This document shows positions 1,737 through 11,062 of a stretch of DNA of 20,000 bases, piece after piece (position 1 is the stretch's first letter; each line of letters opens with the position of its first letter). The notes below the pieces were generated by a model, which saw only the letters and a list, made by a program, of their open reading frames with translations, was not told where the DNA came from and searched no databases. The stretch lies in IMG/VR virus record IMGVR_UViG_3300007770_000008; one strand, written 5' to 3'. Source of the stretch: an uncultured virus (IMG/VR IMGVR_UViG_3300007770_000008) (taxonomy: Duplodnaviria > Heunggongvirae > Uroviricota > Caudoviricetes). The position numbers and the translations under genes were made by a program.

Positions 1737-2375
1737 TTAAGCCTCGTAGGCCATAATTTGCTGAACAGCAATGATGGCACGATCGGTGCTGAACCAGCCC
1801 GAATCGTCCCGAAGCTTGCTCTCCATGTCTATCCACCAGTGATCGCCTTGCAGCAAATCTCCAATCCGGGGCAGCTCGGTGGCCAAGTTGTCAGGCCCCA
1901 GGCCTCCTGCAAACCCTACAGGCTTGACGGTGTCGGGCCTGCTCCAGGTTTCTGGCGTGATCCCTCGGCCACCAGAATTGTCGACGAGTATTGAGTGATT
2001 AGGTAGTTCCAAATCAATCAGGTCGTGATTGTTTTCGGTGGCTTGGGTGATGATCGTGTGATCCGTGTATATTTCACACAGATCTATCAGAAGCTTCTCG
2101 GAGACAGTACCGTTCACCTGTATTCTCTGAACAAGGTGAGTCAGCTCCGGTATTTCGTAGTTCTCTAGCTGCTGCCGGGCTTCCCGACCGCATACATGCA
2201 GAGCGGTTAGTCGGTGGCGTAGTTCCGAAAGTATTCGCCAGGCAGTCTTACGTGAAGGGTACCGTGTACGCCCTCGCGGCCTACAAGTGTATAGCACCGC
2301 TAGTTCGCAACTCTTAGGTAGCCACTGCACATCGGTGCGGGCATCTAGCCCGGTAAGGGTGATTTTGTGAAGCAT
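1737..2375 (-). CDS. Phosphoribosylanthranilate isomerase (TrpF)-like TIM-barrel protein, phage type
   Basis: ITLTGLD, RIQVN, LVDNSGGRG, GFAGGLGPDN, WIDMES motifs. Start moved to ATG 2375 (MLHKITLTG) just after the upstream stop. Confidence 0.7.
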   Translation of the reverse strand: MLHKITLTGLDARTDVQWLPKSCELAVLYTCRPRGRTRYPSRKTAWRILSELRHRLTALHVCGREARQQLENYEIPELTHLVQRIQVNGTVSEKLLIDLCEIYTDHTIITQATENNHDLIDLELPNHSILVDNSGGRGITPETWSRPDTVKPVGFAGGLGPDNLATELPRIGDLLQGDHWWIDMESKLRDDSGWFSTDRAIIAVQQIMAYEA

Positions 2376-2382
2376 CGTATAT

Positions 2383-3756
2383 CTAGTCCCCTGGGAAGAA
2401 CACTGGCTGGCCTTCGCTCTTGGCACTTGCGTCTTGTAGTCCGAAGGCCATTTCAAGGTCCTCCTTTGGTGGTTTCCTGTTTTCGACACGAACAGTGCAG
2501 CTCGGCGGCGTCGGGTTGTCCGGGCTTAAAATGGCTCGCAACAGCTTTGCCTGAATATCCGCCATGCTTTTGCCGCGTTCTACGTAGCCGAGCAGTTGCT
2601 GTGTTTCTTTTGGGTCAAGTTCGCGATCAAGCAATGCGGTAGCCATGTTAAGTGCTTGTTCGTTGGTGGCAGCAGGCAAGTGCACTTGAAGGTCCACGCG
2701 ACCCGGTCTGATCAGTGCCGGGTCTAGCTTTTCAGGGTGATTGCTAGTCATGATGACTAGCCTGCCTGCTGAGCGGGTAATCCCGTCCAAAGCATTGAGA
2801 ATACCCGACAACGTCAAGCCGTAACCCATTTCACCGTCAATAAGCGTAATAGACGTCTGCCTGTCTTCTTCGTCGTCACCCCGTCGACGTTGTGTAACGG
2901 CGGCACAGTCTATGTCTTCGATCAGCAGAACGCAGCGAGAAGGTATTCCTTCTACCAGCTTGGCGAATTTCGCGTCGTTCAACCCACTCGCCAGCGACAA
3001 CGTGTATACGTTCAACTCGAGGTGGCTAGCAATCGCGGCAACAGCAGTGGTCTTACCGCAGCCAGGTGGGCCAGCAAACAGGTAGCCTCTGCGGTGCGGT
3101 AAGCCATGTTGCTCATACCAGTCGCCGTCGGCAATGAATTTGTCAACGTCCTGTATAACGCGGTGCAACTGACCTTCCGGCCAGAAGACATTGTCTAAGC
3201 TACGTTGTTGCCCTTTACCGACGCTGTACCAGCCGCTGTCGAAACGGTATACCCAGTACCAGCCTCTAGACGGTGGGCCCCAAGACGCGTCTCTCGCGGT
3301 GGCGACGAAGTCGTATATGAATTCTTTTCCCCAACATAGGGTACTGAGCTGCACCGTTTCCTCGTATGCCTTGTTAGACCCGGCCTTGCTTTCAAGCTCA
3401 CGCCTGGTCCGGTCGAACCACAGCGGCCAACCTTTGAACCAGATTATGTGCCAACCTGGTGCCAGGCTTATTCGTAGATCCGGCCTCTCGCCGTAGTCTC
3501 CTGGGTTGACTGTTCTGAGTGACCAGAATCCTCGTACGTAGTGTTCAGTGTGTTCGTCTAGCCAGTCGAAAATCCAGCCAGTCGCAGGATCATTGTCCGT
3601 CAGCAACATCGTGGTCACTGTATAACGCTTGATCCAGTAGTAGATCTTGTGCGGTACGTTTCGTAGGTAGGCCAGGATTCCTGCTAGTATGCCTAGCATC
3701 AGCCCGCCGGTGAAGAACTGGTTGTCGGACGTTAGCAGGCTTGTGAGCCATTCCAT
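2383..3756 (-). CDS. BCS1-like membrane-anchored AAA+ ATPase
   Basis: N-terminal TM segment NQFFTGGLMLGILAG, Walker A GPPGCGKT, Walker B LLIEDID, LTLSGILNALDG, LIRPGRVD arginine finger. AGGAG SD. Ends in TAG. Confidence 0.88.
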   Translation of the reverse strand: MEWLTSLLTSDNQFFTGGLMLGILAGILAYLRNVPHKIYYWIKRYTVTTMLLTDNDPATGWIFDWLDEHTEHYVRGFWSLRTVNPGDYGERPDLRISLAPGWHIIWFKGWPLWFDRTRRELESKAGSNKAYEETVQLSTLCWGKEFIYDFVATARDASWGPPSRGWYWVYRFDSGWYSVGKGQQRSLDNVFWPEGQLHRVIQDVDKFIADGDWYEQHGLPHRRGYLFAGPPGCGKTTAVAAIASHLELNVYTLSLASGLNDAKFAKLVEGIPSRCVLLIEDIDCAAVTQRRRGDDEEDRQTSITLIDGEMGYGLTLSGILNALDGITRSAGRLVIMTSNHPEKLDPALIRPGRVDLQVHLPAATNEQALNMATALLDRELDPKETQQLLGYVERGKSMADIQAKLLRAILSPDNPTPPSCTVRVENRKPPKEDLEMAFGLQDASAKSEGQPVFFPGD

Positions 3757-3776
3757 TACATAGCTCCTAGGGTATG

Positions 3777-3805
3777 AAAAAAGCCCCGCCAGAACGGCGG
3801 GGCTT
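3777..3805 (-). terminator. Rho-independent terminator closing the ncRNA array
   Basis: Minus strand AAGCCCCGCC-GTTCT-GGCGGGGCTT followed by TTTT. Confidence 0.8.
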
Positions 3806-3808
3806 AGT

Positions 3809-3855
3809 TGGGGCAGGGGCTCGGTTTTTCACCGATAAAGCATGCACACCCCTAC
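3809..3855 (-). ncRNA. CCA-ended tRNA minihelix-like RNA (47 nt)
   Basis: GUAGGGGU/GCCCCUGC stem, T-arm-like UCGG-UGAAAAA-CCGA, encoded C-CCA 3' end. No anticodon arm. Confidence 0.4.
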
Positions 3856-3860
3856 ATAAG

Positions 3861-3982
3861 TTGCAGGCCTGGGAGTCGAACCCAGTCGGCCTCAGTTCAA
3901 ATGAGGATAACAGTCTTGCGATCAGCCCGTTGCCGGGCAAGTTAGTGCTGGACCGCGTTTAGCCTGTCACCAGACACCTGCA
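3861..3982 (-). ncRNA. tRNA-like RNA T1 with a 56-nt Y-module insert (3906-3961); anticodon loop UU-UGA-AC
   Basis: Acceptor UGCAGGU/GCCUGCA, short D hairpin GUC-UGGU-GAC, T arm CUGGG-UUCGACU-CCCAG, anticodon hairpin CUCA-UUUGAAC-UGAG. Confidence 0.75.
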
Positions 3983-3995
3983 ATTGATGATTGTA

Positions 3996-4024
3996 ATTGT
4001 ACCCTTACTACTTGTTTCTAGCAA
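3996..4024 (-). promoter_or_regulatory. Putative sigma70-type promoter upstream of T1
   Basis: TTGCTA (4024-4019), 17-nt spacer, TACAAT (4001-3996) in an AT-rich gap. Confidence 0.45.
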
Positions 4025-4242
4025 CCACCTGAGGGATCGACTAACTCTATAGTAGCGAAGATATGCGGCTCGTCCTCCGCACTGTACTGGTGTTTCAGGT
4101 CAGTATGGTAGAGCTGGGTTACACGGTAGCGGCCAGGGACGACCTCGACTTGCTCGTGATAATCGTCCACAAGTTCGTCATACAGTTCCGCCCCGCACGT
4201 GCCCAGGGTTACTGGGCAGAGGTAGGCCAGATGAAGCCCTAG
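4018..4242 (-). pseudogene. Start-less protein-coding fragment directly after the 3' end of T2
   Basis: Open frame LGLHLAYLCPVTLGTCGAELYDELVDDYHEQVEVVPGRYRVTQLYH...DPSGGC* looks protein-like. Its N-terminal extension in the ORF track runs through tRNA T2. Confidence 0.4.
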
Positions 4243-4244
4243 AG

Positions 4245-4370
4245 TGGTAGGGGCAGGATTCGAACCTGCACTAACTCGGTGTAAACGAGATAACAATCTA
4301 CCTGTCAGCCTGTTGCCGGGCAAGGTAGTGGTGGATCGTGTTGTTGTGCTAACCATTACACTACCCTACC
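4245..4370 (-). ncRNA. tRNA-like RNA T2 (Val, UAC) with a 54-nt Y-module insert (4289-4342)
   Basis: Acceptor GGUAGGG/CCCUACC-A, D arm GUGU-AAUGGUUA-GCAC, T arm GCAGG-UUCGAAU-CCUGC. Removing the insert gives ACUCG-UUUACAC-CGAGU and a 72-nt cloverleaf. Confidence 0.85.
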
Positions 4371-4376
4371 AAATTA

Positions 4377-4442
4377 CCGGGTAAGTGGACGTCGTGAAGG
4401 GCGGATCATTTACAGTGATAACCTTCATTGACTTCAACCCGG
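4377..4442 (-). ncRNA. Free Y-RNA-like unit A with anticodon-loop mimic CU-GUA-AA (Tyr)
   Basis: CCGGGU-UGAAG...GAAGGUUAUCA-CUGUAAA-UGAU...CCUUCA...CUU-ACCCGG. Confidence 0.75.
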
Positions 4443-4445
4443 AAG

Positions 4446-4572
4446 CTGCAGGCCCTGGAATCGAACCAGGTCTAGCCTCTTAGCAGGAGGATAACAATCT
4501 ACCTGTCAGCCCATTACTGGGCAAGTGTACGGTGGATCGGTTTTTGCTGTGCTACCATTACACTAGCCTGCA
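4446..4572 (-). ncRNA. tRNA-like RNA T3 (GCU anticodon) with a 56-nt Y-module insert (4490-4545)
   Basis: Acceptor UGCAGGC/GCCUGCA-G, D arm GUGU-AAUGGUA-GCAC, T arm CCUGG-UUCGAUU-CCAGG. Removing the insert gives GCCUC-CUGCUAA-GAGGC and a 71-nt cloverleaf. Confidence 0.85.
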
Positions 4573-4577
4573 AAATA

Positions 4578-4653
4578 TGCGGGTAAGGGTTTGGGGAAGG
4601 CGTTTCGTACATCTTCCAAAAAGTTGTGATAACCTTCTTCCAATCAACCCGCA
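4578..4653 (-). ncRNA. Free Y-RNA-like unit B
   Basis: UGCGGGU-UGA...GAAGGUUAUC-[ACAACUUUUUGGAAGAUGU hairpin]-ACGAAAC-GCCUUC...CUU-ACCCGCA. Confidence 0.7.
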
Positions 4654-4654
4654 A

Positions 4655-4725
4655 GTCGTAAAGCCGGGAGTCGAACCCAGTACCCGCACAAGCGGGCAAG
4701 CCAGCGTTTGCTACGCACTTCACAA
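4655..4725 (-). ncRNA. Anticodon-less tRNA-like RNA
   Basis: Acceptor UUGUGAAG/CUUUACGA, D-like GCGU-AGCAA-ACGC, central UGCCCGC-UUGU-GCGGGUA hairpin, T arm CUGGG-UUCGACU-CCCGG. Confidence 0.6.
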
Positions 4726-4730
4726 TAAAG

Positions 4731-4858
4731 AGCCAGAGCTGGGACTCGAACCCAGGACCTAAAGTTGGAGTTAACGATTAACCTTCAGCCCGTCGATCGG
4801 GCAAGCTAACGGAAAACCGTGTTTAAGACTTTTGCTCTACCAACTGAGCTACTCCGGC
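4731..4858 (-). ncRNA. tRNA-like RNA T4 with a 55-56 nt Y-module insert in the anticodon loop (about 4770-4825); anticodon ambiguous (UCC/UUC)
   Basis: Acceptor GCCGGAG/CUCUGGC-U, canonical D arm GCUC-AGUUGGUA-GAGC, anticodon stem AAAGU/ACUUU, variable AGGUC, T arm CUGGG-UUCGAGU-CCCAG. Confidence 0.8.
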
Positions 4859-4859
4859 T

Positions 4860-4924
4860 TGGTGCGATTGGTAGCCCTTTCAATGCTACTTTTAGGGCGT
4901 TGCCTCTCAGCACTCCGCAACCGC
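4860..4924 (-). ncRNA. CCA-ended short tRNA-like RNA (65 nt) without an anticodon arm
   Basis: GCGGUUG/CAAUCGC-ACCA acceptor, UGC-UGAGAG-GCA hairpin, GUAGC-AUUGAAAGG-GCUAC hairpin. Confidence 0.5.
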
Positions 4925-4931
4925 ATAAATA

Positions 4932-4993
4932 GCGAGCAAGTGGACGCGTTAGGGGTGATATCTTAAAAGGATAACCCTAGTGCTTCAGCTCGC
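4932..4993 (-). ncRNA. Free Y-RNA-like unit C with anticodon-loop mimic CU-UUU-AA (Lys)
   Basis: GCGAGC-UGAAG...UAGGG-UUAUC-CUUUUAA-GAUA...CCCUA...CUU-GCUCGC. Confidence 0.75.
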
Positions 4994-4998
4994 GTGTG

Positions 4999-5365
4999 TC
5001 ATCGTAGGAGGTCGATCCTCCCCTTTCCTAGTACTTGTTTGATTGTAGCGGATTTACCTGACCGGTGATCCTTTACCAGGCCCGACTTGAAGTCATAGGT
5101 TCGGACCGTCGTATTGTCATGGATCTTTGCGTCTCGGTCGGCTTTCTTCTCAGCAGCCCGTTTCTCCGCTTTGGCTTCGGCAAGTCTCTTGCTAAAGACG
5201 CCGTAACGCTTCCCGCTTGTTCTTGTGCTGGTCACGTCCGTCGATAGTGACGGAAATACCAGTAGGAATGTGGGTGGCTCGGACACAGGAATCGGTTTTA
5301 TTCTTGTGCTGTCCGCCTTTACCCTTTCCACGGAAGGTTTCGATCTTCACGTCTTTCTTGTTCAC
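4999..5365 (-). CDS. Truncated class I release factor homolog (GGQ peptidyl-tRNA hydrolase domain), about 121 aa via a predicted +1 frameshift at CTT-TAG-C
   Basis: AGGAG SD and GTG 5365. Frame 0 reads [39 protein letters not shown]...REALRRL-TAG (5192-5194). The +1 frame continues SKRLAEAK...[17 protein letters not shown]..., matching the RF1/RF2 C-terminal RTYNF...V.DHR motif. Confidence 0.85.
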
Positions 5366-5394
5366 GAGACTGCTCCTAAGTAATCATCAGCAAG

Positions 5395-5522
5395 GCAGGC
5401 CACTAGGAGTTGCACCTAGACTACCGGCTCCGAATGCGTTAACGATTTCCATTCAGCCCGTTTCCGGACAAGGGGCTGGAGACCGCGTTTTACGGCGTGC
5501 TATCTGTTACACTATGGCCTGC
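5395..5522 (-). ncRNA. tRNA-like RNA T5 (UCG anticodon) with a 55-nt Y-module insert (5438-5492)
   Basis: Acceptor (G)CAGGCCA/UGGCCUG(C), D arm GUGU-AACAGAUA-GCAC, T arm CUAGG-UGCAACU-CCUAG. Removing the insert gives CCGGC-AUUCGGA-GCCGG. Confidence 0.8.
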
Positions 5523-5529
5523 ATAAGTA

Positions 5530-5597
5530 ATGTGGGTAAGGTGATTGTTCGAAGGGGTTCTTCATTTGGGGTGATAACCTTCAACTTCAACCCACAT
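5530..5597 (-). ncRNA. Free Y-RNA-like unit D with anticodon-loop-like CC-CCA-AA (Trp)
   Basis: AUGUGGGU-UGAAG-UUGAAGG-UUAUCA-CCCCAAA-UGA-AGAAC-CCCUUCGA...CUU-ACCCACAU. Confidence 0.7.
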
Positions 5598-5634
5598 AAC
5601 TATCGTAGTAACGCCCCCTGGAGGCGTCAAGTGC

Positions 5635-6543
5635 TTAATTCGGATTGAGCGTAGCAAAGGCTTCTTCAACCAGAGCCCTTGCCTTGTCCGACGGCTCGTC
5701 CGGCGTTTCGTCTTCTCCGAAGTCGTCCCCTTCCAACTCTCGGATTCGGGCAATAGCCTCGTCCGACGTCTTCTGGAAAACTACTACGGAAATCAGCAGC
5801 TCTTTGAGGGCTGCCAGACTAAAGCCCTCTGTTTGGCTTGCCCAGGTAGCCAGGGTTTCCGCAGGCACGTCAAAACTGCTTTGACCGGCGACGAACTCCA
5901 AGTACTCTTGCCGTTGGGGCTTACCAGGCTGGCCTATCTCCAGCAAGGTGTCGATCCGGGAAGGTCGGCAACGAATTCGCTTCGGAACTTCGTCAAGGTT
6001 ATTGGTTGTTGCCAGGAAAAGGATCCCGTGGCCCATGCTCGTAGAGCCGTCCATGAGTTCCAGTAGTTCTTCCTCTTCGCCGTACTCACAGATACGCTCG
6101 ATGTCTTCGATTACACCTAGTACCGGACGTCCCGGCTCGATTTGACGAAGCAGTGGCATGCAGCTCCGGAAATGGTCCACCCCGGATATGAACGTGACAA
6201 CTCCCTTACGCTCGATCGTGTCCCGGATTACCAGTTGGACAATTCCGGTTTTGCCGCAACCAGGAGGCCCGTGGAGGAGTACACCACGTTTGTGGGTCAC
6301 GCCCAGGTTTTTGTAGTGCTCGCCTGTGCTCCAAAACCGCCGGATCTCCTCAACGATTTCATGAGCAGGTCCGTTACGGAATTCACACAACCGCTCATCT
6401 TTCTGCTGCTTGCGGTTTGCCAGCGGGTTGCCCCAGTTGTCTGTTTTGAAGTGGTACAGCCCAGAAGGCAACTGGTCAACAGTCTCGTGCGTGCCGGTGT
6501 AGACATCACGAGACGTGTTGTGGCTCCATTGCTTAAAACTCAT
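5635..6543 (-). CDS. AAA+ ATPase
   Basis: Walker A GPPGCGKT, Walker B GVIEDIE, sensor LATTNN, RPSRID. GAGG SD. Confidence 0.88.
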   Translation of the reverse strand: MSFKQWSHNTSRDVYTGTHETVDQLPSGLYHFKTDNWGNPLANRKQQKDERLCEFRNGPAHEIVEEIRRFWSTGEHYKNLGVTHKRGVLLHGPPGCGKTGIVQLVIRDTIERKGVVTFISGVDHFRSCMPLLRQIEPGRPVLGVIEDIERICEYGEEEELLELMDGSTSMGHGILFLATTNNLDEVPKRIRCRPSRIDTLLEIGQPGKPQRQEYLEFVAGQSSFDVPAETLATWASQTEGFSLAALKELLISVVVFQKTSDEAIARIRELEGDDFGEDETPDEPSDKARALVEEAFATLNPN

Positions 6544-8771: not shown

Positions 8772-8846
8772 CGGCAGCGACGGGACTCGAACCCGTAACG
8801 ACAGAAATTTAGAATTTCCCGCTCTAGCCAATTGAGCTACGCCGCC
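8772..8846 (-). tRNA. Amber suppressor tRNA (anticodon CUA)
   Basis: Full cloverleaf: GGCGGCG/CGCUGCC-G, D arm GCUC-AAUUGGCUA-GAGC, anticodon arm GGAAA-UUCUAAA-UUUCU (CUA at 8812-8810), T arm ACGGG-UUCGAGU-CCCGU. CCA not encoded. Confidence 0.88.
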
Positions 8847-8851
8847 AAACC

Positions 8852-8939
8852 AAGGGGAGCCCGCTACGGATGTAGGACTCGAACCTACGTGGTTTCCTTG
8901 CAGGCCGTCTCGTTCCCTGCAGAACGAGGGGCTCCCCTT
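8852..8939 (-). ncRNA. Unknown structured RNA with a tRNA T arm and a potential pseudoknot
   Basis: 11-bp closing stem AAGGGGAGCCC/GGGCUCCCCUU, hairpin CUCGUUC-UGCAGG-GAACGAG, downstream CCUGCA, T arm GUAGG-UUCGAGU-CCUAC. Confidence 0.6.
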
Positions 8940-8941
8940 AG

Positions 8942-9015
8942 CGGCGGTTGTAGGAGTCGAACCTACCCGTGCCCGACACATAGGCCGGACCGCTCAACCG
9001 TCGAGCATAACCGCC
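8942..9015 (-). ncRNA. Atypical tRNA-like RNA (7-bp anticodon stem, 6-nt loop CUAUGU)
   Basis: GGCGGUU/AACCGCC acceptor, GCUC-GACGGUU-GAGC D arm, GUAGG-UUCGACU-CCUAC T arm. Confidence 0.7.
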
Positions 9016-9021
9016 GCGAAA

Positions 9022-9315
9022 CTAAACATCGGTGCCACTCTCACCTACTGATAGGTTCTTTAGAAATTTCGTCACCATCTCGCGATGCTTATCTGCGAAA
9101 TGCTCTACGGCGTCTTTGACTTTTTCTTGTCGGATCTCTTCTGCATGAAACCTCTCACACTGTTCTCTTGTAAAGAAACAGTGCTGAAGAGGGTTCCATT
9201 GGTCGTCTTCAAAAATGACCCTGTCACCCGTTACTTCGACGACTACGTCCGACTCGATCTGCTTGGTGCAGCTGCACATCCAGTAGGCTCTGAATGTGCC
9301 TTTTTTCTTTGCCAT
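9022..9315 (-). CDS. Hypothetical protein
   Basis: ORF track. Start ATG 9315 (MAKKKG) with GAGGT SD. Confidence 0.7.
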   Translation of the reverse strand: MAKKKGTFRAYWMCSCTKQIESDVVVEVTGDRVIFEDDQWNPLQHCFFTREQCERFHAEEIRQEKVKDAVEHFADKHREMVTKFLKNLSVGESGTDV

Positions 9316-9322
9316 GGGTACC

Positions 9323-9433
9323 TCAAAACGTGATTGTAACGTGGTGGGCACACCAGGCCATGAAGCCGAACAATATAAGGCCGACTATCAGACCGGCCCA
9401 AAAACATATGCCGTTTCCGTTGTCGTCACCCAT
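9323..9433 (-). CDS. 36-aa single-pass membrane protein
   Basis: Manual translation MGDDNGNGICFWAGLIVGLILFGFMAWCAHHVTITF with GGAG SD. Fills the intergenic gap. Confidence 0.6.
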   Translation of the reverse strand: MGDDNGNGICFWAGLIVGLILFGFMAWCAHHVTITF

Positions 9434-9456
9434 CGTTGTCTCCGTTTTCGGGCTAC

Positions 9457-9906
9457 TTAGGGAATTCTACCACCCGGCACGGTGATGACCATGTTAACAC
9501 CAGCGTACGGGAGGTCCGGCGGGTTGTCGTGCTTTTTGAAGACAAGGAGCAACTTGACTATAGCACTCGTGTGTAGCTCCCTGATCGTGAAGGTGTGTCC
9601 CTCCGGAAAGATAACAGCCCACCGCTCAGCGGTGCCATAGCGACGAACACTCCTGGTTTGTGCTGGTTTGTGCTTAACGACCTTGAAGCCGTGACATCGT
9701 AGCCAGTTGCGGGCCTTGACACTGTTTTCGATGTCTTCCGACCCGGTGAAGATGATCTCGACATTCTTGTCAACGACTTTCCAGTCGCGTGTCAGCGTGA
9801 TCTTGTCACCCAACATCGCAAACTGCTTTGTTGGCGGATCGTCACGTTGGTAAGCCAGTGGCAGACAGGTGGCGGCCACTACTGCGAGAGCGAAGATTTG
9901 CTTCAT
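9457..9906 (-). CDS. Hypothetical protein with an N-terminal signal-like segment
   Basis: MKQIFALAVVAATCLPLA. AAGGA SD. Confidence 0.65.
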   Translation of the reverse strand: MKQIFALAVVAATCLPLAYQRDDPPTKQFAMLGDKITLTRDWKVVDKNVEIIFTGSEDIENSVKARNWLRCHGFKVVKHKPAQTRSVRRYGTAERWAVIFPEGHTFTIRELHTSAIVKLLLVFKKHDNPPDLPYAGVNMVITVPGGRIP

Positions 9907-9938
9907 AACAATGGTCCTTGTAGGTAGGTGACTATTAG

Positions 9939-10035
9939 CGGGCGAGGGAGGATTCGAACCTCCAACCCGTTACCCAGGCGTTGCCGAATACAGAGCCTGT
10001 AATGGTACCGCTCTAACCAATTGAGGTACTCGCCC
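9939..10035 (-). ncRNA. tRNA-like RNA with an elongated anticodon arm (97 nt)
   Basis: GGGCGAG/CUCGCCC acceptor, D loop AAUUGGUUA, T arm GGAGG-UUCGAAU-CCUCC. The anticodon arm is replaced by GUACC-AUUA-CAGGC-(15 nt)-GCCUG-GGUAAC. Confidence 0.7.
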
Positions 10036-10037
10036 GT

Positions 10038-10115
10038 TACGCAGACCGACACACCCGAAGGCTCACGGTTAGACTTACGGAGCAATATTACTTGCCACAC
10101 CCGCTGGTCTGCGTA
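10038..10115 (-). ncRNA. Unknown structured RNA between tRNA-like genes
   Basis: 10-bp terminal stem UACGCAGACC/GGUCUGCGUA enclosing small hairpins, including CC-UUCG-GG. Strand inferred from context. Confidence 0.5.
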
Positions 10116-10116
10116 G

Positions 10117-10197
10117 TGGAGAGTGAAGGATTCGAACCTTCGACTGACGGCCTTCGTCTTATTGACGGGGCCCGCTCTACCGCTGAGCTAACTCTCC
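10117..10197 (-). ncRNA. tRNA-like RNA with a non-canonical anticodon arm (loop AAUAA)
   Basis: GGAGAGU/ACUCUCC-A, GCUC-AGCGGUA-GAGC, GAAGG-UUCGAAU-CCUUC. Arm GGCC-C-CGUC-AAUAA-GACG-AA-GGCC. Confidence 0.75.
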
Positions 10198-10201
10198 GAA
10201 G

Positions 10202-10287
10202 CGGGGAGTGAAGGATTCGAACCTTCGACCTTTCGTTGCACGAGGAGGCCTCTCGCAACGAACGCTCTACCACTGAGCTAACTCCCC
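10202..10287 (-). ncRNA. tRNA-like RNA with an 11-bp anticodon-less arm
   Basis: GGGGAGU/ACUCCCC-G, GCUC-AGUGGUA-GAGC, variable AGGUC, GAAGG-UUCGAAU-CCUUC. Arm UUCGUUG-CGAG-AGGCCUC-CUCG-UG-CAACGAA. Confidence 0.75.
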
Positions 10288-10321: not shown

Positions 10322-11062
10322 TTACTTCTTCTCGTCCGACCCCTTGTACTTATCAACCCCGGCGTCTGCCTGAGCTGCTCGATCCTCGTCATCGAACATC
10401 TCTAGACTGGCGGAGGTTACCTGGGCCGTGTAAGCCTCTTGACTCATACCCCGTGTTCTGGTCAGGCCTTTGCTCAAACCCTTGAACAGATCTGTGGTGC
10501 CTTGGCTGTTGTTAGCAGCGGTCAGAACGGCTTTGGCGTTACTAAAGCCCATAGCTTGTGCAACGTCCTCGGCGTCCTGGTTCATGCCGACGTAGGTAAA
10601 GGCCCAGGAGTATTTGCTTTCCTGTTCCTTGACCATCTCTTGCAGCCGTCGTTGAATGGATTGGGCGTTGCTGCCGTAAGGCGTGCCCCACTCAACATGT
10701 GCCGACGCGTTCTCGAGACCGTCGGTCAGCGTAACAAACACCACCTTATCTGGTCGATCGGCTTCTGGCATCTTGACCAGCCGGTCACCGGTATCTGTAA
10801 TCGCTCGGCACTGTGACGCCCATAGCGGGGTCATGCTTCGCGGATGCAGCATAAGTGACGGCACCTCTGCGATCGGTACGGCTCGGTAGACCACGTCAAA
10901 GCCGTTGCTGTCGAACTGGATGAGCGTTACAAAGCACTCGCCCGGTTCTTCGGCCTGCTCTTTAATCATGGCGTCAAAGCCACCGACTACGTCGGATTTG
11001 ATTGAGGACATCGACCCCGAGCGATCCAATAGGAAGGTCAGGTCGGTTCGGTTCTTCTTCAT
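10322..11062 (-). CDS. von Willebrand factor A (vWA) domain protein
   Basis: MIDAS FLLDRSGS, VTLIQFD, MTPLW, VTLTDGLENAS. Confidence 0.88.
   Translation of the reverse strand: MKKNRTDLTFLLDRSGSMSSIKSDVVGGFDAMIKEQAEEPGECFVTLIQFDSNGFDVVYRAVPIAEVPSLMLHPRSMTPLWASQCRAITDTGDRLVKMPEADRPDKVVFVTLTDGLENASAHVEWGTPYGSNAQSIQRRLQEMVKEQESKYSWAFTYVGMNQDAEDVAQAMGFSNAKAVLTAANNSQGTTDLFKGLSKGLTRTRGMSQEAYTAQVTSASLEMFDDEDRAAQADAGVDKYKGSDEKK

Follow-up and report, generated by a model that had tools for sequence, protein, structure and literature searches.

The question raised by this stretch of DNA is whether five interrupted tRNA genes encode tRNAs with removable introns or RNAs of another kind that keep the interruption. 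The stretch, here called the window, comprises 20,000 nt of an uncultured virus of the class Caudoviricetes (IMG/VR record IMGVR_UViG_3300007770_000008); it comes from a marine metagenome and is probably part of a large phage. On its minus strand, between positions 3861 and 5522, lie five tRNA genes (T1–T5), each with a conserved structured insert of 54–56 nt in the anticodon arm. An initial annotation had offered two readings of the insert: a new class of protein-spliced tRNA mini-introns, or a permanent protein-binding arm grafted onto tRNA. The evidence favours the grafted arm and gives the protein a name, Ro60/Rsr, with binding itself predicted from sequence. What the insert most likely represents is a Y RNA stem, recognisable as Ro60-binding in type, and each gene probably encodes a single RNA of ~122–128 nt that is both tRNA and Y RNA.

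As encoded, none of the five genes is found whole by ARAGORN; after removal of the insert, all five are. Deletion scans, in which every segment of 48–63 nt was removed from each gene and ARAGORN rerun (with a repeat at 40–94 nt), place the insert precisely in three of them. T2 (4245–4370) has a sharp optimum at the loss of 54 nt (4289–4342), between anticodon-stem positions 28 and 29, which yields Val(UAC) with a score of 126.2. T3 (4446–4572) has an equally sharp optimum at 56 nt (4490–4545), leaving anticodon GCU on a class I body (score 127.0), and T5 (5395–5522), which has an atypical T loop (UGCAACU), becomes Arg(UCG) when 55 nt are taken out (5438–5492; score 110.7). The canonical arms that the initial annotation expected from excision in these three genes are thus recovered. 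The other two are less regular. In T4 (4731–4858), the best deletion is of 55 nt at four equivalent positions (anticodon UAA, score 121.6); the insert as defined by homology (about 4770–4825) would leave a 6-nt loop if removed, so this gene is interrupted within the anticodon loop (CUUAAA...), as had been suspected. T1 (3861–3982), with loop UUUGAAC (anticodon UGA), a class I body and a reduced D arm, gives an ambiguous optimum (anticodon UGA, score about 109–114); removing its insert (3906–3961) by eye does reproduce the 7-bp stem and UGA anticodon described earlier, with a D arm of only 3 bp.

All five genes share one order: 5′ acceptor strand, D arm, insert with anticodon arm, T arm, 3′ acceptor strand. 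Five copies of the insert core pattern are present in the window, where 0.00 would be expected. A covariance model built from the insert (R1), run with filters off, finds exactly these copies, at 48.9 bits in T1 (3906–3964), 53.5 in T2, 54.7 in T3, 52.1 in T4 and 54.1 in T5. The annotated set of five genes with a uniform insert is confirmed. Of the five as encoded, the Rfam tRNA model matches only T4 (58.5 bits) and T2 (47.8 bits), over the whole length of the model and with insertions of 56 and 67 nt, respectively. In its D and T arms, T4 matches tRNA-Lys genes that belong to other organisms of the same metagenome, and the metagenome contigs that join across the T4 insert site, over 20-nt flanks, are ordinary cellular tRNA genes (three Lys, one with another anticodon arm). 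Alleles without the insert had been proposed as a check; the contigs of three DNA runs show none for the phage genes.

As working decoders, all five genes fail as encoded, with the anticodon stem or loop broken, and in three of the five the anticodon does not fit the body. Ser and Leu tRNAs belong to the long-variable-arm classes. The class I bodies of T1 and T3 (Ser anticodons) and of T4 (Leu anticodon) lack a long variable arm. The earlier argument that the Ser anticodons of T1 and T3 speak against ordinary decoding therefore holds, and it extends to T4.

The insert has the anatomy of a Y RNA stem, namely a lower stem of the Ro60 type, an internal loop, a covarying upper stem and a UUAUC motif. 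The Y RNA lower stem, as defined in PMC4726728, has 7 bp, one bulged pyrimidine and a bulge on the opposite strand; the same review treats nematode stem-bulge RNAs as homologues of vertebrate Y RNAs and UUAUC as common to both. In the insert, the lower stem is a 7-bp helix of GGGC-U-GA paired with UU-GCCC around one bulged U. Its paired strands read GCCC(R)/(Y)GGGC; the bulged U comes next, G-U and A-U pairs follow it, and the opposite strand has five unpaired bases. Across 28 inserts, U28-A52, U29-G51, G30-C49 and C32-G47 are invariant or nearly so, and U50 is bulged. UUAUC is present in three of the five window inserts (UUAAC in T4 and T5) and in all 23 inserts from cellular organisms.

What sets the insert apart from an ordinary Y RNA is its strand order, which is swapped: a GNRA-type loop of 4–5 nt closes the lower stem, and at its open end the stem is continuous with the tRNA, where it makes the third arm of a three-way junction within the anticodon arm. 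In the Rfam alignment, the Beggiatoaceae Y RNA reads 5′-..CGGGCUGAAG-AUGUUGGG-UUAUC..loop..CCCAACGUC-ACCCA-CUUGCCCG..-3′, and the insert in tRNA genes reads CCGUAUGUC-ACCCC-CUUGCCUG-loop-CGGGCUGAAG-AUAUACGG-UUAUC. The same blocks appear in another order; the insert therefore corresponds to a Y stem with a loop capping its terminal end and with its loop end leading into the tRNA. The lower-stem blocks match the RF01656 consensus UCGGUCCGGaG / CUUGACCG. When the 28 inserts were compared with three Y RNAs, the 3′ half of the insert scored a local mean of 12.3 against the Y 5′ strand (control 3.9), and the 5′ half 7.8 against the Y 3′ strand (control 4.5).

The proposed structure is upheld by the alignment of the 28 inserts. 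In it, 90.4% of cells pair, against 78.1% in shuffled alignments (0 of 500 shuffles as high), and the covariation score is 0.446 against 0.219 (again 0 of 500); control structures slid along the alignment reach only 27–45% pairing. In the upper stem, 92.3% of cells pair and five of seven pairs differ in both partners between inserts; the lower stem hardly varies, a pattern expected for a protein-binding site. When folding is constrained to the cloverleaf, the insert adopts the Y arm unaided, within 3–4 kcal/mol of the minimum free energy (MFE): −41.4 kcal/mol in T3 (MFE −45.6) and −39.2 kcal/mol in T5 (MFE −42.3). Other RNA families and small ribozymes were also considered: an Rfam search of 3700–5700 at E up to 1 returned only tRNA and chance-level matches, and hammerhead, kink-turn and box C/D motifs were rejected on comparison by eye.

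Relatives of the insert occur in cellular genomes. A strict insert pattern finds nine loci in JGI metagenome contigs, eight of them within tRNA-like genes. Among species-representative genomes it finds five: two metagenome-assembled genomes (MAGs) of Ca. Parabeggiatoa, one of Thiomargarita, Desulfonema magnum and one chance match in a Prevotella coding sequence. A looser regular expression reveals arrays, with five insert-bearing genes within about 800 bp in D. magnum, three at each Parabeggiatoa locus and four in Thiomargarita; in the whole D. magnum genome, R1 has exactly five matches, all in the one array. On the chromosome of D. magnum 4be13 (NZ_CP061800.1), these five chimeras occupy 4732569–4733400. 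Under strict filters the spread is patchy, with 6 of 55 genomes in the order of the Thiomargarita MAG and 2 of 121 sampled genomes in that of D. magnum. Among viruses, blastn of 3800–5600 gave no match in GenBank phages, and the strict pattern gave none in IMG/VR. Further patterns in IMG/VR gave 119 single matches (taken as chance without one-by-one inspection), 27 loci of which none lies in a tRNA context, and 7 loci of which none has the partner strand.

These cellular arrays lead to Ro60. At all loci with enough flanking DNA, a TROVE/Ro60 gene lies within about 0.9 kb of the insert array. The D. magnum array is directly upstream of a gene with TROVE (3.5e-41) and vWA_Ro60 (7e-56) domains, on the same strand, and in the Parabeggiatoa-like contig L121 a TROVE gene (2.1e-38) follows directly downstream, also on the same strand. 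In Thiomargarita (L131; TROVE 4e-11), three of the four insert copies are upstream on the TROVE strand; the fourth, on the opposite strand about 0.9 kb from TROVE, points away from it and faces a UvrD-type helicase gene. In the three MAGs, the two R1 matches outside the main arrays (L211, L213) lie directly upstream of second TROVE genes on the same strand.

Just upstream of the arrays, four Beggiatoaceae/Thiomargarita sites hold RF01656 matches above the gathering threshold of 38 (38.3–43.7 bits). These are Y RNAs of normal topology, at L121 2722–2791, L122 2733–2798, L126 2729–2794 and L131 3376–3444. They are metazoan-type Y RNAs in bacteria, with both lower-stem strands and UUAUC.

Two further observations at the cellular loci stand by themselves. 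Downstream of the D. magnum Ro60 gene (L177 2298–2572) are three more long tRNA genes of 85–88 nt, called by ARAGORN as Leu(UAA), Pro(AGG) and Tyr(GUA); the 85-nt ‘Pro’ gene with A34 is odd. In Thiomargarita (L131 57–2939), the TROVE frame spans only 173 aa and ends beside a group II intron reverse transcriptase/maturase gene, and this Ro60 gene may be interrupted by a group II intron.

The window itself also holds Y RNAs outside the tRNA genes. The stretches upstream of T5, T3 and T2 are repeats of one another and fold as open Y RNAs, all on the minus strand. Y-A (5530–5597; −18.8 kcal/mol, z −2.32) lies upstream of T5, has normal topology and reads GUGGGU-U-GA ... GAAGG-UUAUC ... CCUUC ... 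CUU-ACCCAC. Y-B (4579–4653; −23.8 kcal/mol, z −3.17, 0 of 200 shuffles as good) lies between T3 and a sixth tRNA-like gene, T6, and Y-C (4377–4442; −19.8 kcal/mol, z −2.08) between T3 and T2. Their common layout is (N)GGGU-U-GA ... GAAGG-UUAUC ... CCUUC ... CUU-ACCC(N), with UUAUC in all three, and their outer lower-stem pairs covary (GUGGGU/ACCCAC, GCGGGU/ACCCGC and CCGGGU/ACCCGG). A stem formed from the 5′ and 3′ ends of the RNA, the usual mark of a Y RNA, is found in Y-A, Y-B and Y-C and not in the five inserts. A scan for the Y 5′-strand motif finds it eight times where 0.06 are expected; every copy lies on the minus strand, within 3906–5593. In five, CUUG(C/U)C stands 13–14 nt upstream, forming the closed hairpin within a tRNA; in the other three, CUUACC stands 31–40 nt downstream, as in open, stand-alone Y RNAs. 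A 251-nt contig from a second study covers the Y-B-to-T3 stretch (4381–4631), insert included, with three differences.

T6 (4656–4725, minus strand; −30.4 kcal/mol) was recognised by eye; in it, a 7-bp hairpin, CUUGCCCGC-UUGU-GCGGGUA, replaces the anticodon arm. It adjoins Y-B. Its hairpin looks like a Y lower stem that lacks the bulge, and T6 gives no R1 match at E up to 1. The array appears to start at a promoter-like site (5630–5602) and to be closed by a strong intrinsic-terminator-like hairpin downstream of T1 (3781–3805, minus strand; 11 pairs, 8 of them G-C, then TTTTC), both being consensus matches only. The apparent unit runs Y-A, T5, a release-factor-domain gene, T4, T6, Y-B, T3, Y-C, T2, T1.

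The release-factor-domain gene (5002–5365, minus strand), which carries the GGQ motif and is PrfH-like, lies between T5 and T4 and contains a +1 frameshift at CUU UAG C: PF00472 positions 8–65 are in one frame (1e-19) and 68–116 in the +1 frame. Its best NCBIfam match is prfH, at 69 bits, below the cut-off. The shift site has the layout of the autoregulatory prfB site, CUU UGA C, with the RF1-read stop UAG in its place. On the same strand downstream of the array follow an AAA+/BCS1_N ATPase (2383–3756), which shares ~30% identity with jumbo-phage proteins, for example from Caulobacter phage CcrColossus, and an open reading frame (ORF; 1737–2489) without a family match in Pfam, PHROG or NCBIfam. 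Beyond them lie an HD phosphohydrolase of the RelA/SpoT type (1144–1836) and an RNA ligase (436–1140; PF09414, 64.8 bits). The ligase reported earlier at ~2.7 kb from T1 is thus present, with a weak Rnl2 assignment (TIGR02307, 28.9 bits against a cut-off of 197). Two AAA+ ATPases lie around the array; the gene context of the CcrColossus homologue is uninformative. Given the nearby genes for RNA ligase, HD phosphohydrolase and PrfH-like rescue factor, the context is likely to be protection of the translation machinery from host weapons that cleave RNA, and the array is best read as lying in a phage RNA-repair and ribosome-rescue island.

Taken together, these features point to a chimeric RNA in which the tRNA body (a 7-bp acceptor stem, D and T arms and a mostly intact anticodon stem-loop) and the Y arm coexist. 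A polycistronic precursor would be cut by tRNA end-processing enzymes into chimeras, and the mature RNA would keep its insert. The Ro60/Rsr ring, supplied from elsewhere in the phage genome or by the host, would bind the bulged lower stem. Meanwhile, the tRNA part might act like the tRNA-like module of bacterial YrlA, presenting a tRNA shape to tRNA-binding partners while tethered to Ro60. Possible partners include nucleases, repair enzymes and translation factors, with the RNA acting as tether, decoy or damage sensor. A phage setting has parallels: Iyer et al. (2021; PMC7824862) place a TROVE protein in some jumbo phages and describe it in cells as an RNA-repair platform with a tRNA-like partner, and a 2025 report (PMC12135203) has Y-like RNAs and Ro60 of Thermus phage phiLo assembling with host PNPase.

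Two ways of combining Ro60 stems with tRNA-like parts have been described, YrlA and Yrn1 (Chen et al. 2014, PMC4201824). YrlA (RF02553; Salmonella, Mycobacterium smegmatis and mycobacteriophages) resembles the chimeras in linking a Ro60-binding stem with a module of tRNA shape that has a D arm, a T arm and an acceptor, and in lying near rsr, mostly on the same strand, with more than one RNA per locus (PMC4201824). RNase P cleaves the M. smegmatis YrlA, to which CCA is added (PMC4201824). Its topology is the reverse of that found here: YrlA ends in the Ro60 stem, in the anticodon arm's position, and its acceptor is closed by a loop (PMC4201824), whereas the chimeras end in a normal acceptor and have their Ro60 stem closed. 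YrlA also lacks an anticodon arm, which the window chimeras keep, and only its 5′ strand is recognisable (motif GNCGAAN0-1G), whereas the chimeras keep both strands of the metazoan-type bulged helix. The Rfam YrlA model reaches only 22.6–27.5 bits against a gathering threshold of 69, elsewhere in the window or the loci.

Yrn1 of Deinococcus radiodurans is closer in the helix itself, with both Ro60 strands metazoan-like, and it shares tRNA-like T-arm features and co-transcription with tRNA (PMC4201824). In Yrn1, however, the Ro60 stem is formed by the RNA ends and replaces the acceptor (PMC4201824); in the chimeras the stem lies internally, as a hairpin within the anticodon arm of a tRNA that is complete in other respects. 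Metazoan Y RNAs and stem-bulge RNAs (RF00019, RF01656) share the 7-bp bulged lower stem, the upper stem and UUAUC, as described in PMC4726728, and their topology is that of the three stand-alone window copies and the Beggiatoaceae copies. Compared with them, the inserts are circularly permuted, have the loop domain replaced by an entire tRNA, carry U rather than C at the bulge and occur in bacteria and a phage. The chimeras are therefore best read as a third topology beside YrlA and Yrn1, with native tRNA ends and a closed Ro60 stem in the anticodon arm, often next to an anticodon stem-loop that is intact. Full-text literature searches, with several key reviews outside their reach, returned no description of a tRNA-Y chimera, and five of the six supplement files of Chen et al. 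(2014) make no mention of Beggiatoa, Desulfonema, Thioploca or Thiomargarita.

Conservation of Y RNAs and Ro60 extends from bacteria to humans, and what bacterial Y RNAs use their tRNA-like part for is an unsolved problem. The window and its relatives show that tRNAs complete in other respects can accept a Ro60-binding stem in the form of a closed hairpin. If the hairpin loop were cut and the acceptor closed, such an RNA would become one of the YrlA type, which suggests a route from tRNA genes to tRNA-like Y RNAs. Y RNAs with the full metazoan-type lower stem and UUAUC are now placed in giant sulfur bacteria, Desulfonema and a marine phage. To the RNA-repair and ribosome-rescue gene sets of large phages, it contributes an RNA component linked to Ro60: the array described here. 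Gene finders miss the chimeras, and tRNA sets may be misjudged as a result. Because D. magnum is a named strain with a complete genome, both the handling of a tRNA by Ro60 and removal of the hairpin are directly testable there.

The points that weigh against this reading concern both the Y RNA assignment and the fate of the insert. No Rfam Y RNA family matches 3700–5700 at E up to 1, so the assignment in the window rests on comparison of motif and structure, not on a curated model; the inserts miss the Rfam Y models because their permuted order cannot match them. No Ro60/TROVE gene is found in the 20-kb window by Pfam, PHROGs, NCBIfam or tblastn with three Ro60 proteins. The ORF at 1737–2489 was considered as a Ro60 candidate and rejected (tblastn with the three proteins gave only E 0.017–1.3, and a PDB sequence search and inspection of the translation were unsupportive), and a vWA-like protein at 10322–11062 has no PDB relative. 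As to the fate of the insert, its removal restores canonical arms in T2, T3 and T5 and in 8 of 23 cellular chimeras tested, and restoration this exact is what a spliced intron would predict. The nearby ligase points the same way.

The rival that survives best is accordingly excision: an endonuclease would cut out the Y hairpin and an RNA ligase would join the halves, producing a working tRNA and a free 55-nt Ro60-binding hairpin. In one variant, Ro60 binding would decide whether the tRNA matures. Excision accounts well for the sharp optima with 5-bp stems and 7-nt U33 loops in T2, T3 and T5, and for the HD phosphohydrolase and RNA ligase 2.7 kb away. The anticodon stems of T2, T3 and T5 differ from one another, yet each pairs across the insert, as the strands flanking a three-way junction would have to do as well. 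Flood et al. (2016; PMC4853749) report that the Arg-TCT and Leu-TAA tRNAs of two Beggiatoaceae are unannotated and contain uncharacterised ‘putative group I introns’, which would also favour excision if these are the present element.

The strongest case for it comes from D. magnum, where insert removal from the Arg(UCU) chimera gives the loop CUUCUAA. A tRNA census of this genome combined an Rfam tRNA scan, in which 150 of 349 candidates were scored, with two anticodon-loop/T-loop patterns. The scan gave 53 matches and from these 51 intact ARAGORN tRNAs, which cover all expected anticodons except Arg(UCU). No uninterrupted tRNA-Arg(UCU) was found by either route, the one group I intron match of the genome falls in tRNA-fMet, and the sole UCU candidate is the chimera beside the Ro60 gene (C1:4732728–4732857). 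If the only AGA-reading tRNA is indeed a chimera, its hairpin must be excised and the halves rejoined. That negative is weak and not diagnostic, because the scoring covered those 150 candidates and patterns for Arg(UCU) found none in four D. magnum relatives either (one of them clearly incomplete, with 22 tRNA matches). In one relative, the orthologue of the chimera has a different loop. That the hairpin is a true intervening sequence in D. magnum, removed and the halves rejoined by protein enzymes, is improbable.

Several features of the insert argue against introns more generally. Its position is not fixed: it occupies the D loop of one D. magnum gene (L130 2274–2312) and replaces the whole anticodon arm in three genes of 113–116 nt (L121 3103–3215, L122 3110–3222 and L128 72–187), an arrangement conserved between contigs; in such genes there is nothing to restore. 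Orthologous bodies carry varied and odd anticodons, often switching to A34 forms. Five aligned orthologues (the ‘a-type’), for instance, have nearly identical bodies with loops CUAUAAC, UUCAAAU, UUUGGGU and UUUGGGG. Over all restorable chimeras, the anticodons would be AUA, AUC, UCA, AUU, UGG, UAA and UCU. In the window, three of the five anticodons misfit their bodies.

Known intron classes offer no better fit. tRNA introns resemble the inserts in interrupting tRNA genes in or near the anticodon arm, with removal restoring the arm. Bacterial group I introns sit in anticodon loops and have a ribozyme core of some 200 nt or more; archaeal and eukaryal tRNA introns are protein-spliced, the archaeal type being marked by a bulge-helix-bulge at the exon-intron borders. 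The insert differs from all of these in its 54–56 nt, its variable position including the D loop, its Y-stem sequence and its place beside Ro60 in cells. Group I (RF00028) was rejected on size and because 3700–5700 has no match at E up to 1, nor is any other ribozyme family found at that threshold. No bulge-helix-bulge could be drawn by eye for T2 or L123, with no program run. The initial annotation was right that group I and II introns do not fit, and the bulge-helix-bulge, as judged by eye, does not appear to fit either. The new class of protein-spliced mini-introns that it proposed in their place finds no support, given the Y stem, the Ro60-adjacent arrays and the D-loop and arm-replacing copies. 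On balance the insert is likely retained as an arm, and excision is unlikely. Were it nevertheless to occur, Bacteria and their phages would have their first case of protein-dependent tRNA splicing; one gene would yield both a tRNA and a Ro60-bound mini Y RNA, Ro60 might gate tRNA supply under stress, and the five phage genes with ligase and HD hydrolase would form a portable version of the pathway. As a separate observation, D. magnum does have a group I intron, the single match found there, of 219 nt in the anticodon loop of an initiator-type tRNA-fMet(CAU) gene (L202 1469–1783, C1:7825280–7825498; RF00028, 64.3 bits).

A second alternative refines retention rather than opposing it. The chimeras would be decoy or sentinel tRNAs that keep the insert and whose anticodon loops bait host anticodon nucleases; Ro60 would hold or protect the cut RNA, and the ligase and phosphohydrolase would reseal it or signal damage. 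The anticodon loops stay at 7 nt, mostly with U33, yet vary freely among orthologues, as bait in an arms race would; such variation fits an absence of constraint equally well. The neighbouring RNA ligase, HD hydrolase and PrfH-like rescue factor suit this role, as do extra tRNA-like genes at 8941–10287 with long-hairpin or extended anticodon arms. In Salmonella, rsr presumably also lies within the RtcB/RtcA repair operon. Damaged tRNAs regulate that RNA repair operon, according to Hughes et al. (2020; PMC7790460). This specific role is a slim prospect. Least of all are the inserts likely to be small mobile MITE-like DNA elements or marks of decaying pseudogenes without RNA function, a very remote reading that draws on the variable insert positions and on the reported richness of the cellular host genomes in mobile elements (Flood et al. 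2016, PMC4853749) but is disfavoured by covarying stems with many G-U pairs, meaningless in DNA, by the placement of all five D. magnum matches in one Ro60-adjacent array rather than scattered, and by a lower stem conserved across the marine phage, Desulfonema and Beggiatoaceae.

Beyond the array of Y arms, a few features of the window deserve mention. A second cluster on the minus strand (8772–10287) contains five tRNA-like genes, none with a Y stem. Four of them (8941–9017, 9939–10035, 10117–10197 and 10202–10287) have a long hairpin or an extended region for an anticodon arm, without a 7-nt loop. The fifth and only regular one (8772–8846) is an amber-reading tRNA with anticodon CUA. Finally, within the ORF lacking a family match, a 212-aa frame (1737–2375, minus strand) has a C-terminal half with GG.G ... 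AGGL.P.N, which by eye may resemble barrels of the phosphoribosylanthranilate-isomerase type.

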